The notes under the pieces: generated by a model
The model's input: only the letters and a program-made list of their open reading frames with translations
Databases searched by the model: none
Told to the model about the DNA's origin: nothing
Source: a virus
Length of the DNA: 49,280 bases
Virus genome (UHGV): UHGV-0151084
Direction: 5' to 3' (one strand)
Translations under genes and position numbers: made by a program
Shown: piece after piece, positions 43,747 to 49,280 of the stretch
Position numbering within the stretch: the stretch's first letter is position 1
How the letters are laid out: each line of letters begins with the position of its first letter

Positions 43747-44227
43747 TTATTATATCTACGATGGTAGGAAATCTTTTCCTATGTGGCAATAGAAATTTAC
43801 TACATTGCGTATAAGACAAGTTTTCTATGTCTAATAGGACATGATGTTTCTTACGTTTTATCGCGTTCTGATGGCTACTGTGTGCGTATTTATCGACGTT
43901 TATTGATAAGGCTCGCCCCTTCCTCCTGCAAAGCCCGGCCGTAGGCCTTATTTCGGCCTTATATAAATTGATTTTGTATAGTTCGAAACGCGCCGTTTCG
44001 AAAAGGATGATCAGGCTGCTCCATGCCTCCGGCAAGTGCCGGAGGAGGTATATTTGAGCGTAGCGACTCGAACCGGCGCGAGCTTTAGCTCGCTGCAAGG
44101 GCGAACATATTCACAGGCAAAGCCTGCGTAAGTTAAATAAAGAAAGTCTTAATAAAAGAAAGTGATTTTGCATTTATTTGTTTAGTGCATCTATTATAAA
44201 AAACCATTTGCATATACATATCAAAAC

Positions 44228-44236
44228 TGTGGATAA
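44228..44236. promoter_or_regulatory. DnaA box (TTATCCACA on minus strand) within putative oriR downstream of repA
   Basis: Perfect consensus 9-mer in AT-rich region 44150-44300 about 140 bp after repA stop. Confidence 0.5.
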
Positions 44237-44377
44237 CTTTATTAGCCGATGCCTGTAAAGGCGATATTTTTGCTGTGTTCAGGTTTAGAGAAAATTAATT
44301 TAGATTGTTTTTTGAACAGATATTTTATTGCGACGTAGATAATCCTCCGGTAAAACCGGATTCATCATTCAGGTGGG

Positions 44378-45226
44378 TTAATGTTGGAGTGATTTCCAAG
44401 TCTTTCTTAACCTGTTATAACGCTGCTCAACGAGGGATCGTAAATATGCAAGGTCAGCTCCAGGATACATGCCATCAGCAAATTCCTGGCTAACCTCTCT
44501 AGTGATTTGATGACGAAGTTCGGCCTCTCCCTTTTCCCGAACAAGACGCGCAGCTCTCTCCGCTGCTTTCTGTTTTGCCTTTATCTCTCTGGCCGTCTTC
44601 CTCTGACGCCATACATTCTCCATCTGCTCCTGAATAACAATACGCTTATAATCAGCCTCCGTTATCGCTTTTTTAAGCCGTTCGCTATTCTTCGCATTGA
44701 AGTAATTAAGTTTCTGGCTAACCGCACGTCTCCATGCTTGTTCAGTAATACCAACGGTTTCCAGCAGTTGATCACGAATCTCTATTTTCGCTGGCCAATA
44801 CTGTTTATTCACCCGATCCCAGCGACGTTCATAATCAATAAAACCTAACGCTTTCAGTTGCGACAACGCCCTTGTACAGCGCGTTATAGACTTGTTCCCA
44901 GCTTCGGATACGGTAGACAGACCGCAAAAATCAGCCAACGCCTCAGCACTGGCCAGAACCCGCTTAGAAATGATGTTTACATGGTGCAAAATCGCAGCAA
45001 TCACAGCATTAATCGCCCGACGACGATGCTCGTTTATCCGGCGTTTCCGCTCTGACGGTTGATTAACGTAGAACGCAACCTCACACGTAAGATCACGACC
45101 ATTAATGCGCTGTAAAGCATCAGATAACACCAGCGGCAGCTTGTGCGTATGGTGCTTTGGAGGCTGGAACTCCGGCGACAAATTACAAACGTAAGCTGAA
45201 CGTAGAGACGGCATTGGTCTATCCAT
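44378..45226 (-). CDS. repA: Replication initiator RepA, IncFII (RepFIIA)-type
   Basis: Central region LSTVSEAGNKSITRCTRALSQLKALGFIDYE aligns with IncFII RepA1 (LATESAAGKLSITRATRALTFLSELGLITYQ); start placed at internal ATG 45226. Confidence 0.8.
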   Translation of the reverse strand: MDRPMPSLRSAYVCNLSPEFQPPKHHTHKLPLVLSDALQRINGRDLTCEVAFYVNQPSERKRRINEHRRRAINAVIAAILHHVNIISKRVLASAEALADFCGLSTVSEAGNKSITRCTRALSQLKALGFIDYERRWDRVNKQYWPAKIEIRDQLLETVGITEQAWRRAVSQKLNYFNAKNSERLKKAITEADYKRIVIQEQMENVWRQRKTAREIKAKQKAAERAARLVREKGEAELRHQITREVSQEFADGMYPGADLAYLRSLVEQRYNRLRKTWKSLQH

Positions 45227-45241
45227 ATGTTCGCTCTTGCG

Positions 45242-45348
45242 TCCACGGAAAACCAACGTATAATGGGAGTTGTCGAGGCGCCCATGGTTAATTGTTGGTT
45301 TTCCGTGGATGTCGCAAGAAGCCCGCAGATTTATCTGCGGGCTTTTTG
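45242..45348 (+). ncRNA. Candidate CopA-like antisense RNA in repA leader
   Basis: Plus strand: perfect 16-bp inverted repeat (45242-45257 / 45294-45309) then terminator GCCCGCAGAT/ATCTGCGGGC + T5, antisense to the repA 5' region. Confidence 0.45.
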
Positions 45349-45536
45349 TTTCCATATCTGGTCGCTTTCCAACCAGACACCCACAATCATAACCACGTTA
45401 CGTGGTTTTAAGAGAACTCTACCACAACACTTTCGGTCATGCACGAAGTCTCTCACTGATCGAACGATAATCCACCAGTAAAAGGATCTAAATTGGATCT
45501 CGTTTTGCGAGCATCATACTACTGGCCTAACTCCAG

Positions 45537-46091
45537 TCAATGATTCCCAGCCGGAAACCTGCGGTAAAGCGTGGATAAGGTAACATCGAAGATAATCGCT
45601 ATCCGCTTACGTGAAACACCATTCGCAATAAGCCTTCCGATCTGTTCCCATTGCTCTGGGGCCAATTTTGAGCGGCGTCCTCCTATCCTGCCATTAGCCC
45701 TTGCCACCGCCAATCCTGCACGCGTTCTTTCAATCATATTTTCCCGCTCCATCTCTGCGACTGCACTCAGCATCGTGTAGGCAAAGCGGCCAATTGAAGT
45801 GCTAATTTTTATCCCTTCCGTAATCGAAATAAACTCAATGTTGTTTGATAAAAAATGGTTAAGTAAATCAACAAGATGAATCAGAGAACGCCCCATTCGA
45901 TCCAGCTTCCAGACAATAACCGTATCGCCCGGCCGTAACACCTTCAGTAGCTTATCAAGCCCTGGTCGTTTTGATTTAGCACCGGATATTTTATCTTCAA
46001 AAATCCGGTCACATCCTGAACTCCTGAGCGCCTCCAGTTGTAATTCCAAATTCTGGTCAAAAGTTGACACCCTCGCATAACCATATTGCAT
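45537..46091 (-). CDS. Serine DNA invertase, Gin/Cin/Hin family
   Basis: 184 aa; YARVSTFDQ catalytic-serine motif, C-terminal HTH; 64 bp from gix-like site B. Confidence 0.85.
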   Translation of the reverse strand: MQYGYARVSTFDQNLELQLEALRSSGCDRIFEDKISGAKSKRPGLDKLLKVLRPGDTVIVWKLDRMGRSLIHLVDLLNHFLSNNIEFISITEGIKISTSIGRFAYTMLSAVAEMERENMIERTRAGLAVARANGRIGGRRSKLAPEQWEQIGRLIANGVSRKRIAIIFDVTLSTLYRRFPAGNH

Positions 46092-46119
46092 ACTTTCTAA
46101 ACCGCGATTGTTGCTAAAA

Positions 46120-46194
46120 GCGGGAAAAAATATCGTTCAGACGACACAGAGGCAATTCGCAAAAACCTCGGTTTACAGGAAACGGTAAACAAGG
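46120..46194. repeat. Left arm of inverted repeat flanking invertible tail-fibre cassettes
   Basis: 75 bp with 2 mismatches to the reverse complement of 49206-49280. Confidence 0.8.
46156..46181. other. gix-like recombination site B (TTCGCAAAAACCTCGGTTTACAGGAA)
   Basis: Inverted relative to sites A and C. Confidence 0.6.
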
Positions 46195-46205
46195 CTGGTA
46201 ACGCC

Positions 46206-47186
46206 GTGCAAAAGACAGGCGATACCTTGTCCGGTGGACTTACTTTTGAAAACGACTCAATCCTTGCCTGGATTCGGAATACTGACTGGGCAAAGATTGG
46301 ATTTAAAAATGATGCCGACAGCGACACTGATTCATACATGTGGTTTGAAACAGGCGACAACGGCAATGAATATTTCAAATGGAGAAGCAAACAAAGCACC
46401 ACAACAAAAGACCTGATGAATCTTAAATGGGATGCTTTGTATGTTCTTGTCAATGCCATTGTAAATGGCGAAGTCATATCAAAATCAGCAAACGGCCTAC
46501 GTATTGCTTATGGTAATTACGGATTCTTTATTCGTAATGATGGTTCAAATACATACTTCATGTTGACAAACTCCGGTGACAACATGGGGACTTATAACGG
46601 ATTAAGGCCATTATGGATTAATAACGCTACTGGCGCTGTTTCGATGGGGCGTGGCCTTAATGTTTCAGGGGAGACACTTTCAGACCGTTTTGCTATTAAC
46701 AGCAGTAATGGTATGTGGATTCAGATGCGCGATAACAACGCTATCTTTGGGAAAAATATAGTTAACACTGATAGCGCTCAGGCGTTGCTTCGCCAGAATC
46801 ACGCCGACCGAAAGTTCATGATAGGTGGACTGGGGAACAAGCAATTTGGCATCTACATGATTAATAACTCAAGGACAGCCAATGGCACCGATGGTCAGGC
46901 GTACATGGATAATAACGGGAACTGGCTTTGCGGCTCGCAAGTTATTCCCGGAAACTATGGCAATTTTGACTCCAGATATGTGAAAGATGTTCGACTTGGT
47001 TCACAGCAATATTATGGAGTGAACAACTGGCAAACATGGAATTTCCAGTGCCCGTCAGGTCATGTATTGTCTGGTATTAATGTTCAGGATACAGGGTCCA
47101 ACTCTGCCGATAATATAGCGGGCGTTTATTACAGACCCGTTCAAAAGTATATAAATGGCACCTGGTATAATGTAGCGAGCGTTTAA
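46206..47186 (+). CDS. Tail fibre variable C-terminal cassette (Sv'-like), currently not joined to the constant region
   Basis: Frame is open from 46101 through site B; first residues [15 protein letters not shown] identical to the end of the constant gene at the window start. Confidence 0.75.
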
Positions 47187-47187
47187 T

Positions 47188-47715
47188 ATGATGCACTTAA
47201 AGAACATAAAAGCGGGTAACGCTAAAACACTGGAACAGTATGAGTTAACAAAGAAACACGGAGTTATCTGGCTTTACTCTGAGGACGGAAAAAACTGGTA
47301 TGAGGAAGTGAAAAACTTTCAGTCAGACACAATAAAGATTGTTTACGATGCAAATAATATTATTGTCGCCATCACTAAAGATGCCTCCACGCTTAACCCT
47401 GAAGGTTTTAGCGTCGTTGAGGTTCCAGATATTACAGCCAACCGCCGCGCTGATGATTCAGGAAAGTGGATGTTTAAGGATGGAGCTGTAGTTAAACGGA
47501 TTTATACGGCAGACGAACAGCAACAACAAGCCGAATCACAAAAGGCCGCATTGCTTTCCGAAGCTGAATCAGTCATCCAGCCGCTGGAACGCGCTGTCAG
47601 GCTGAATATGGCAACAGACGAGGAACGCACACGACTGGAAACATGGGAACGCTACAGTGTTCTGGTCAGCCGTGTGGATACGGCAAATCCTGAATGGCCA
47701 CAAAAGCCTGAGTAA
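47188..47715 (+). CDS. Tail fibre assembly protein (Tfa, U'-like)
   Basis: 175 aa; conserved Tfa pattern (NWYEE...[14 protein letters not shown]...KWMFKDG). Confidence 0.8.
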
Positions 47716-47721
47716 AAATTA

Positions 47722-47740
47722 AGGCCCGATATCGGGCCTT
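47722..47740. terminator. Bidirectional hairpin between convergent Tfa genes
   Basis: AGGCCCGATATCGGGCCT palindrome. Confidence 0.5.
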
Positions 47741-47743
47741 CTC

Positions 47744-48277
47744 TCATTCTGGTTGTTCGGGAAACGTTACTGGCAGGCTGGAGGTGTCTGTGGATTCGAC
47801 TTTCTGCGCGTAGAGCATCCACTCGGTTAATTTTTGTTTATTCTCGTCGGAAATGATGCCCAGCCGTAGCTGTGAGTCCCATAGCTGGGTTTTATCCCTG
47901 ACAAGTTGCAACAGGCTTTGCTTTTCATTCTCTGCCTGCTGCCTCTGTTCCTCCTCGGTATAAGTTCGCTTTATCACTACGCCATCTTTGAACATCCATT
48001 TACCCGAAATATCAGCCCGGCGATTTGCTGTAATATCAGGTAATTCAACGACGCTTGCGCCTTCTGGATTAATTGCTGAAACATCCTTTTCAATACAAAT
48101 AATAACGCCGTTGTGGTCATAGACCATTTTCAACGTATCAGGCTGAAAGTTCTTTTGTTCCTCATACCAGTTTTCCCCATCCTCTGTATAAAGCCATTTG
48201 ATGTTAAATTGTTTCGTTAGCTGGTATTGCTCTTTTGTTTTAGGGTTGCCAGCAGTAATATTTTTTAAGTGCATCAT
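47744..48277 (-). CDS. Tail fibre assembly protein (Tfa, U-like)
   Basis: 177 aa paralog of 47188..47715. Confidence 0.8.
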   Translation of the reverse strand: MMHLKNITAGNPKTKEQYQLTKQFNIKWLYTEDGENWYEEQKNFQPDTLKMVYDHNGVIICIEKDVSAINPEGASVVELPDITANRRADISGKWMFKDGVVIKRTYTEEEQRQQAENEKQSLLQLVRDKTQLWDSQLRLGIISDENKQKLTEWMLYAQKVESTDTSSLPVTFPEQPE

Positions 48278-48279
48278 AA

Positions 48280-49280
48280 TTAAATACTCCCCGCGTTATA
48301 CCACGTTCCATTAATGCAATACTGAATTGGCCTTGCCTGAGTTGTATCAATTAATTCATCACGGTTTCCGTTAACTGACCCCGTAACGACATAACCTGAC
48401 CTGTCAGACCAGCCGGGACCATTCCATGTCTGAACAGATGACAGACCGCCAAGACGAATACCTGTAATAAACCTTGAGTTACATTCTGCCTGCGTATATG
48501 CACCAACATCTCCCGCTGATGGCTTACGTGTTGTGGTGTAAATTTCTGACCAGTCAGCTTCGAATCCGTAACCATCACGCGCTGAACGATAAAAAATACC
48601 GCCGTTCCTGTAATTCACACGGAACTGTACGGCAGGGCAACTCCCCGTATTCATATTGAAGTGGAGGATTAATGTCGATGCGCCACCAATATTTGCGTTA
48701 TAGACCCCGCTATTCCAGTTCCAGCCAACAGCTTTATCATTTCCGACAGTGCTTCCTGTTTGCCCTAAAGCAAATGCAGGCTGCTGGTTTTTCGTGTTGT
48801 AGTCTCGTCGCCAGCCAGGAGCATAAGCATCACCATGATTAATATAAGTGAATTGAGCGTTAGTGATTCCGCCACCGCTGGAAGTGCTCGGGGTGGTTAC
48901 ACGGATGGTCATGGCTCCTTTATTACCCATAACCTCAATAACGCAACCTGCAAGATGAATAGTTCCACAGCCAGTATCGGTAATAATTTTATTATTGCCG
49001 TATGACCATGAACATTTGCACATCCAGTATGGGTGATTGAATGCCCCTTGAGAATCAAGCCATTCAATCAATTGTGCCGTTGTCCAGTTCCCTGCCCCTG
49101 TACTAATAGCACTGTGAAAAGCACGACATGCACCAATATTTTTTGTGAAGGTATCTTTTCCAGGAATATCTGCGCCGTTCTGGTTTTTCTGTAATGCGCC
49201 AGAAGCCTTGTTTATCGTTTCCTGCAAACCGAGGTTTTTGCGAATTGCCTCTGTGTCGTCTGAACGATATTTTTTCCCGC
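48280..49280 (-). CDS. Tail fibre variable C-terminal cassette (Sv-like); frame continues through site C beyond the window end
   Basis: Track start at 49227 is a TTG artefact; frame stays open upstream (…KKYRSDDTEAIRKNLGLQET…). Confidence 0.75.
   Translation of the reverse strand, partial: GKKYRSDDTEAIRKNLGLQETINKASGALQKNQNGADIPGKDTFTKNIGACRAFHSAISTGAGNWTTAQLIEWLDSQGAFNHPYWMCKCSWSYGNNKIITDTGCGTIHLAGCVIEVMGNKGAMTIRVTTPSTSSGGGITNAQFTYINHGDAYAPGWRRDYNTKNQQPAFALGQTGSTVGNDKAVGWNWNSGVYNANIGGASTLILHFNMNTGSCPAVQFRVNYRNGGIFYRSARDGYGFEADWSEIYTTTRKPSAGDVGAYTQAECNSRFITGIRLGGLSSVQTWNGPGWSDRSGYVVTGSVNGNRDELIDTTQARPIQYCINGTWYNAGSI
49206..49280. repeat. Right arm of inverted repeat (truncated by window end)
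   Basis: Reverse complement matches 46120-46194. Confidence 0.8.
49219..49244. other. gix-like recombination site C (TTCCTGCAAACCGAGGTTTTTGCGAA)
   Basis: Same orientation as site A, inverted relative to site B. Confidence 0.6.

Follow-up and report, generated by a model that had tools for sequence, protein, structure and literature searches.

A putative antisense RNA gene nested in the repA leader of an Escherichia coli phage-plasmid, and a predicted structural switch in the repA mRNA

Introduction

UHGV virus genome UHGV-0151084 is an Escherichia coli phage-plasmid of ~48 kb, which carries on the - strand a repA gene of the IncFII/L-M family, with the probable oriR downstream of it. The whole stretch analysed, 49,280 nucleotides (nt), is called the window, and all coordinates refer to it. 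Opposite the 5' part of repA lies a long perfect inverted repeat, followed by a GC-rich hairpin. The question raised by this locus is whether such sequences encode an RNA able to control RepA synthesis, and to which of the two strands each hairpin belongs. We hold it moderately probable that an unannotated antisense small RNA (sRNA) of ~80 nt controls repA translation via a structural switch in the repA mRNA, limiting copy number. No RNA is annotated at the locus in the database records inspected, and papers describing the replicon or its control region were not found in a literature search.

Results

Organization of the repA leader region

Read on the + strand, TCCACGGAAAACCAAC (45242-45257) and GTTGGTTTTCCGTGGA (45294-45309) are exact reverse complements of each other, and form the arms of a perfect 16-bp stem with a 36-nt loop (45258-45293). 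At the 3' side of the repeat are found GCCCGCAGA (45321-45329), TTTA, TCTGCGGGC (45334-45342), TTTTT (45343-45347), G and TTT; the stretch directly 3' of the GC-rich hairpin (45321-45342) reads TTTTTGTTT. All these elements reside within an open reading frame (ORF) of 325 codons (44378-45355, -). Stem, loop, hairpin and T5, which a sequence-only reading of this DNA had placed within the 5' part of the repA ORF and opposite to it, are confirmed by direct reading of the sequence. RNA spanning 45227-45360 on the + strand folds at -69.5 kcal/mol, versus -34.7 +/- 3.7 kcal/mol for 200 dinucleotide shuffles (z = -9.3; 0/200 as good), and G.U pairs lengthen the + strand stem to 20 bp. No other copies of the arm sequence are present in the window, up to 3 mismatches being allowed. 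The GC-rich hairpin at 45321-45342 was missed by a consensus terminator scan, likely because the stem can take in the A-tract and T-tract at its sides. Sub-threshold Rfam matches found in the window (Thr_leader, 31.9 bits versus a gathering score of 55; CsrC; others) were rejected, as they reflect the generic shape of a hairpin plus a terminator.

Two leader types share a predicted antisense promoter

Relatives, denoted below by L numbers, were gathered by protein search and contig look-up, by BLAST, and by scans for the conserved 21-mer TATAAT[GC]GGAG[GT]TGTCGAGGC. The core motif was found in 45 sequences, coming from plasmids, IMG/VR and metagenomes. Their leaders have been sorted into two types: the window, L014, L016, L017 and the other plasmids of E. 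coli and Salmonella are among those of type 1, and L009, L012, L013, L015 and L020 among those of type 2. In the comparison with Salmonella the core region (45227-45350) is nearly invariant, while its flanks, repA codons included, are ~75% identical.

Leaders of both types feature, opposite repA, the hexamer TTGC[GA]T, a spacer, a perfect TATAAT, the next 15 nt of the motif ([GC]GGAG[GT]TGTCGAGGC) and a terminator hairpin. The spacer measures 16 nt in type 1 and 18 nt in type 2. The -35-like TTGCGT (45237-45242, +) is invariant in 16/16 distinct type-1 leaders, and is replaced by TTGCAT in type 2. The -10 (45259-45264, +), a perfect consensus TATAAT located in the first bases of the 36-nt loop, is invariant in 45/45 sequences. 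TTGCGT-16-TATAAT is the only promoter-like site of the + strand conserved in all of the 8 lineages scanned. The promoter is nested in the inverted repeat, as the -35 is found at the base of the 5' arm, the 5' arm makes the spacer, and the -10 opens the loop. The arms have wholly different sequences in type 1 and type 2 leaders, and retain complementarity. Type-1 leaders show changes on both sides in three pairs of the 16-bp stem and in one terminator pair; 98.2% of the alignment cells are paired, and the covariation score was reached by none of 500 column shuffles.

Since the conserved promoter lies inside the inverted repeat, the RNA would start near 45271, and would lack the 5' arm. The earlier suggestion that a countertranscript gene resides in the repA leader is upheld by the conserved + strand promoter and the intrinsic terminator, and by their location in the most conserved stretch of the region. 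The parallel suggestion that the 16-bp stem and its loop are part of the countertranscript probably has to be abandoned, as the promoter is internal to the repeat and the predicted RNA, ~77-80 nt long, includes the 3' arm only. The stem is probably a feature of the repA mRNA, in which both arms are present, and this would account for the compensatory changes.

Features of the predicted antisense RNA

An antisense sRNA is very probably made from the + strand, judging from the conserved signals, and likely starts inside the loop. The predicted RNA (45271-45350, +) measures ~77-80 nt. The start is placed by its distance from the -10 (+/- 2 nt), and the 3' end falls in the T-run at 45343-45351. 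The RNA folds at -41.1 kcal/mol (z = -6.7) into a 5' tail, stem-loop I and terminator stem-loop II; this fold is predicted in all variants, and agrees with RNAalifold results on 13 variants.

Stem-loop I (45277-45313, +) is made by pairing of GGCG (45277-80) to TGTC (45310-13), and of CCATGG (45282-87) to CCGTGG (45303-08). Two of its pairs covary (GC/AU/GU/UG, alignment columns 17/40 in RNAalifold), and several of its G.U pairs correspond to C.A mismatches on the mRNA strand. Stem-loop II (45314-45349, +) is an intrinsic terminator, with a core stem (45321-45329/45334-45342), the tetraloop TTTA, and a T5 run (45343-45347). A compensatory change from A-U to G-C was found in the terminator of three type-1 leaders, L016 and L017 included, and type-2 terminators have the same shape and a different sequence.

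The apical loop of stem-loop I (45288-45302, +) hosts a hypervariable patch at 45288-45291. Multi-allelic substitutions, and indels of 2, 3 and 5 nt, are found here among 15 distinct sequences of the E. coli group which are otherwise ~97-100% identical. Loop variants include GGTTAATT, GGATTGTTGTT and GGATATTGTT. In the mRNA the same residues mark the 5' edge of the large loop. The pattern is the one expected of a specificity (incompatibility) determinant, and 45288-45291 is a candidate for this role.

The start of RepA

The annotated RepA includes an N-terminal extension of 43 codons (45227-45355, -) overlapping the structures described above. RefSeq RepA proteins measure 325/326 amino acids (aa) in E. 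coli and 277 aa in the Salmonella relatives, whose annotated start aligns with M48 of the window protein. Full-length RepA homologues at 59-85% identity all measure 274-284 aa. In L019, L038, L039 and L041, near-identical members of the E. coli group, the loop has indels of 2 or 5 nt, which shift the ATG at 45355 to another frame. More distant type-1 relatives (L004, L005, L014, L016, L017 and L031) lack an in-frame ATG corresponding to that at 45355, L014 having one only 5 codons upstream. The suspicion, raised in the sequence-only reading, that the 43 codons are not coding is borne out by all these comparisons: the extension is mRNA leader. Because of the indels, the missing upstream ATGs and the length of the homologues, RepA is most likely encoded by 44378-45226 (-), and starts either at M44 (ATG 45226-45224; 282 aa) or at M48 (ATG 45214-45212; 278 aa). 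RefSeq entries WP_249822777.1 and WP_228465520.1 (cluster P0001, ~525 member sequences) appear over-extended by 43 codons.

A conserved AUG, the first after the 3' arm of the mRNA hairpin (window 45212-45226), shares the RepA frame in the window and L014 but not in L004, L005, L016 and L017. In the last two it opens a 13-aa ORF overlapping the RepA AUG, which may be a mini leader ORF. A leader ORF starting from the loop ATG at 45285 (83 aa in the window) was rejected, as the ATG is missing in type-2 relatives, and the length is implausible.

Type-2 leaders are organized differently. In L009 (2028-2504), L010 (1236-1712) and L015 (112-588) an ORF of 158 aa, matching Pfam IncFII_repA, is located between the antisense-RNA region and repA, and in L009 and L010 shares 4 nt (ATGA) with the repA start. 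This ORF resembles a partly duplicated N-terminal domain of RepA that works as a translationally coupled leader ORF; only 63 aa of it are left in L013, and 34 aa in L012. The leader ORF ends with ATGA on the repA start also in L012, and stops a few nt past the repA ATG in L013.

A predicted switch in the repA mRNA

In the repA mRNA the inverted repeat forms a leader hairpin. Arm A, the 5' arm (45294-45309, -), is fully complementary to the sRNA. The 36-nt loop (45258-45293, -) has a core, CCTCGACA[AC]CTCC[CG]ATTATA, conserved in both leader types, and its 45271-45293 portion, complementary to the 5' end of the sRNA, would provide a single-stranded toehold. Arm B, the 3' arm (45242-45257, -), is the putative switching segment: it is predicted to pair with arm A in the free mRNA, where the hairpin is lengthened by a lower stem (CUUGCG:CGCAAG), whereas in an mRNA with a blocked sRNA target its predicted partner is the translation initiation region. 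A Shine-Dalgarno (SD)-like AAGAG (45234-45238, -), changed to AAGGG in L016, L017 and L031, is located 7 nt upstream of the first AUG.

The alternative hairpin (45212-45258, -) is made by pairing of arm B to the initiation region (CGUUGGUUU:AGACCAAUG, UCCGUG:UAUGGA). Both AUGs are predicted to be paired, and AAGAG to fall in a 4-nt loop. Refolding of arm B over the AUGs upon blocking of the target is predicted in every type-1 lineage folded. The alternative hairpin ranges from -15.6 to -19.2 kcal/mol in 7 leaders with four different initiation-region sequences, values reached by 0-2% of shuffled initiation regions. Blocking the target raises the computed energy needed to open the initiation region by 0.9-7.2 kcal/mol (median ~4). 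In type-2 leaders arm B is predicted to refold over the SD and the AUG of the leader ORF. Replacement of AGACCAAUG by AGAGGAAUG, upstream of M48, would weaken the pairing of arm B to the initiation region, leaving arm A:B pairing untouched. A long-range pairing of the loop with repA codons, UUGUCG/GGAGUU in the window, lacks conservation and was discarded; an AUGGGCG:CGUCUGU pairing of the loop with repA codons is recurrent, rich in G.U pairs, and located within conserved coding sequence.

We infer from these data that the sRNA is produced, where it starts, and how it may work. Its level would track copy number. The RNA would dock on the 36-nt loop of the mRNA and invade arm A, displacing arm B; freed arm B would fold onto the initiation region, with the AUGs at 45226 and 45214 paired and AAGAG in the tetraloop, and both RepA synthesis and replication initiation would drop. 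On whether the sRNA acts mainly by this refolding, as folding models suggest, our confidence is evenly balanced.

Several data weigh against the model. The type-1 sample corresponds to about five or six independent lineages only. The -35 agrees with the consensus at 3/6 positions only, and it is from the promoter consensus that the 5' end of the sRNA is deduced. Two lineages have only a small predicted increase in opening energy (0.9 and 1.5 kcal/mol), and in the sRNA-free fold the initiation region already costs 8-11 kcal/mol to open, part of the SD being engaged in the lower stem. Cognate pairs were not favoured when arm B was matched to the initiation regions of other lineages, a test not discriminating because arm B sequences are too similar. 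The shuffle test on refolding is significant in only about half of type-2 lineages. Moreover, complementarity of the loop to the initiation region is present in some relatives, and the fold model used does not include pseudoknots.

Alternative explanations

The RNA could be longer (~110-125 nt), start upstream of 45239, include the whole 16-20-bp stem and its 36-nt loop in addition to the terminator, and act by CopA-like kissing with the complementary structure of the leader. This is unlikely. The 20-bp stem that G.U pairs allow on the + strand would suit such an RNA, and weak sites which could drive it exist: TAGAGA-17-TATGTT (45203-45231) in the window, predicting a start near 45238, and ATTACA-18-TATCAT in L016 and L017. 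These upstream sites are not conserved, and none is found in L005 and L014, whereas the internal TTGC[GA]T...TATAAT is present in every relative of both types. Non-canonical pairs in the stem favour neither strand, as L016 has U.G on the + strand and L005 has it on that of the mRNA. Bulged stems are usual in comparable antisense RNAs, and a perfect duplex of 16-20 bp would be atypical; the short RNA, in turn, has a conserved covarying stem-loop I of its own, which reuses the 3' arm. Doubtful to the same degree is that the sRNA works as in IncB, IncI and IncL-M plasmids, blocking either an activating pseudoknot between the loop and the ribosome-binding site (RBS) or translation of a short leader ORF. 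In support of this, L008, which among replicons having a recognisable leader is the closest (RepA 63% identical), passes the gathering score of PK-repBA, and the UGGGCG in the window mRNA loop resembles the UUGGCG target-loop motif. Duplexes between the loop and the initiation region reach -15 to -20 kcal/mol in L004, L005, L016 and L017, the same relatives that have, from the first AUG, a short ORF in another frame across the RepA start. But that pairing is weak in the window, where, as in L014, the first AUG is in frame with RepA and leaves no separate leader peptide; the complementary segment covers the SD and the AUG themselves, so that inhibition rather than activation is expected; and neither PK-repBA nor PK-repZ matches the window, L012 or L014.

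Elements working at the DNA level, such as an operator around the promoter of a small RNA or a cruciform, with the hairpin and T-run as a mere terminator and no regulatory RNA, are very unlikely. The arms do flank a promoter, symmetric changes could reflect co-evolution with a dimeric binding protein, and a hairpin with an A-tract, a stem and a T-tract could terminate transcription in both directions. Yet no + strand gene ends here, and only a short transcript would be there to terminate. The arms make 16 contiguous bp, lie ~36 nt apart, and are wholly replaced in type 2 while still complementary; arm B pairing to the initiation region, like the strand-specific G.U pairs of stem-loop I, makes sense only in RNA. 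Arms are not repeated elsewhere, for instance in the oriR region, and their interpretation as repeated protein-binding sites was rejected for want of further copies. That RepA truly has 325 aa, and the structure is incidental to its coding sequence, is hardly credible. The ORF is open in the window and RefSeq annotates products of this length in E. coli, but the frameshifting indels in near-identical plasmids, the lack of the ATG at 45355 in six relatives, and the size of full-length homologues all speak against it, as does the Pfam match, which begins only at residue 52.

Comparison with known control systems

Rfam models of known antisense systems do not match the element. CopA (RF00042) has no match in 44000-46200 at E<=10, and PK-repBA (RF01089) and PK-repZ (RF01087) have none in the window at E<=10, nor in L012 and L014 at E<=1. 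The leader of L008 (2363-2489) served as positive control, scoring 49.3 bits with PK-repBA (gathering 45), 34.3 bits with CopA (E = 0.005), and 28.8 bits with PK-repZ; the search thus works, and the window leader is truly different. The L008 leader is of the classical IncB type, with UUGGCGG in the target loop and a leader ORF of 15 codons, which ends on a GUG start. As L008 keeps an IncB-type leader, the window lineage seems to have exchanged its control module. The label CopA-like, given in the sequence-only reading, does not hold in the family sense. Of the IncFII-type antisense copy control there invoked, the signals of an antisense gene in the repA leader are present, while matches to the CopA family and features of R1 are not.

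Like CopA/CopT of R1 and R100, the window has a cis-encoded antisense RNA of <100 nt, predicted in the leader of a repA of the IncFII superfamily, with two stem-loops, the 3' one being the terminator; oriR is downstream of repA, two candidate repA promoters are found, and the RNA would act post-transcriptionally on RepA synthesis. In CopA the major recognition loop (~6-7 nt) is carried by the 3' terminator stem-loop. The terminator in the window, in contrast, has a 4-nt UUUA loop on a stem of at least 9 uninterrupted bp, and cannot serve as kissing loop. Other differences are the location of the sRNA promoter, nested in the target hairpin, and the predicted effect, refolding of the mRNA rather than block of the RBS of a leader peptide. 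In R1 the direct antisense target is the leader peptide gene tap, whose translation is coupled to that of repA (PMC12361487, PMC8053102). No tap-like leader peptide is found in the window, where a single AUG is found between the target and repA, in the RepA frame and 4 codons before M48. R1 also carries upstream the repressor gene copB, and a repA promoter repressed by CopB (PMC12361487). There is no copB in the window; the upstream gene is a Hin-type invertase, and no small ORF is found between the invertase and the leader.

The antisense RNAs (Inc RNA/RNAI) of IncI-alpha, IncB and IncL/M plasmids share with the predicted sRNA the RepA superfamily controlled (NF040977), and a target in a leader stem-loop upstream of the initiation region. 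In IncB, IncI and IncL-M plasmids the target loop pairs beside the rep RBS to form an activating pseudoknot (PMC8053102). No such pseudoknot was clearly identified, and an extra 16-bp switch hairpin lies between the equivalent of the terminator hairpin and the initiation region. A leader peptide stopping at the repA start is absent in the window, and present in type 2 (34, 63, 158 aa).

The closest mechanistic parallels come from plasmids of Gram-positive bacteria, in which pT181 RNAI and pIP501 RNAIII work by transcription attenuation, pSK41 RNAI by RBS sequestration. The refolding logic of pT181 and pSK41 is established, and in pSK41 an antisense-induced hairpin sequesters the rep RBS, a translational output proposed for that plasmid (PMC5703833). 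In pT181 and pSK41, as predicted in the window for arm A:B, a pre-emptor pairing blocks a downstream hairpin until the antisense RNA takes the 5' partner. Arm A:B has the marks of a pre-emptor helix, as it covaries, and arm A lies within the region complementary to the sRNA. Like the predicted sRNA, pSK41 RNAI has two stem-loops and a 5' tail. Unlike the attenuators of pT181 and pIP501, the alternative hairpin is followed by no U-run (next sequence CCGUCUCUACG), and is therefore not a terminator. Rep proteins are unrelated (PF02387 only in the window, Rep_trans or RepA_N in the Gram-positive plasmids), as are the hosts, and the resemblance of the predicted switch to these systems is analogy of mechanism, not homology. 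The element would work like antisense copy-control systems, and is a member of no curated family.

The replicon and its surroundings

The RepA ORF matches Pfam IncFII_repA (PF02387; 1.3e-43), and scores 232 bits with NCBIfam NF040977 RepA_IncFII_LM (cut-off 70); with TIGR03474 incFII_RepA it scores 79 bits, far under the cut-off of 447. In the plasmid collection searched, the nearest RepA outside the phage-plasmid group is at most ~37% identical, and none has an identity between ~37% and 80% to the window RepA. A 2026 preprint on phage-plasmid copy number and heteroresistance, which mentions repA and copA, probably concerns a different replicon, because of this gap. The repA region is 98-99% identical to that of three Yersinia phage genomes (vB_YpM_39, 41 and 44). 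Matches to this region were found in 62 PLSDB plasmids of ~46-52 kb, and in plasmids of 71 out of 5,426 complete E. coli genomes, including pATCC25922_1 of ATCC 25922 (NZ_CP158444.1, ~22.6-23.0 kb); Salmonella plasmids also carry the element. Scans of a one-genome-per-species genome collection with the RepA protein and the conserved 21-mer gave no matches. pSLy3 is not this element, and belongs to the SSU5 supergroup.

The only perfect DnaA box of the window, TTATCCACA (44228-44236, -), is located ~145 nt downstream of the repA stop, in a stretch of 25-33% GC (window 44100-44350). Box and AT-rich stretch likely correspond to oriR, in the position typical of IncFII. Two candidate repA promoters were found. 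P1 (45513-45540, -; TTGACT, 16 nt, TATGAT; 10/12 in a consensus scan) overlaps the stop codon of the invertase gene, and is conserved as TTGACT...TATCAT in L005, L014, L016 and L017. P2 (45416-45444, -; GTGCAT, 17 nt, TGgTAGAGT, an extended -10) is a putative promoter, whose elements are conserved across type-1 and type-2 leaders. Two GATC sites (GATCCAATTTAGATCC, window 45484-45499) are found just downstream of the P1 -10, and paired GATC sites recur in L005, L016 and L017. They may be a Dam/SeqA-sensitive or a repressor-binding element of the repA promoter.

Upstream of the sRNA target the leader has two more hairpins, AACCACG-TAA-CGTGGTT (~45388-45404) and TCTGGT...ACCAGA (~45357-45377). 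Both (window 45360-45400) keep their shape, with different sequences, in L005, L014, L016 and L017. Position 45365, in the loop of the latter, has three alleles within the E. coli group.

The neighbours of repA are tail-fibre genes and a Hin-type invertase. The Hin/Cin-type serine invertase (45537-46091, -; 184 aa; Pfam PF00239, resolvase/invertase) adjoins opposed tail-fibre/tail-fibre-assembly ORFs (46206-47715, +; 47744-49227, -), and the region 45537-49227 looks like an invertible host-range segment. NZ_CP024865 is without invertase, and its adjoining genes are different.

Discussion

The data suggest, tentatively and somewhat short of probability, that a replicon of the IncFII/L-M family has swapped control by leader peptide or pseudoknot for a translational pre-emptor switch, in which the antisense promoter is nested in the target hairpin and strand displacement of one arm by the sRNA lets the other bury the repA starts. 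In the same interpretation the loop at 45288-45291 would be the incompatibility determinant letting sibling phage-plasmids coexist, and the sRNA would represent a new RNA family, absent from Rfam, spread in dozens of E. coli and Salmonella phage-plasmids, that of ATCC 25922 included.

Correction of the RepA start concerns a RefSeq protein cluster of ~525 member sequences. Curing or typing of these plasmids might exploit the sRNA and its loop, and the element is carried by a quality-control strain, ATCC 25922. Loop variants found among near-identical plasmids make a natural experiment in the evolution of specificity. If the switch is real, a Gram-negative translational counterpart of the refolding known in pT181 and pSK41 would join the IncFII/IncI repertoire. 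Control of copy number decides the upkeep of a phage-plasmid as prophage, and which relatives can coexist with it.

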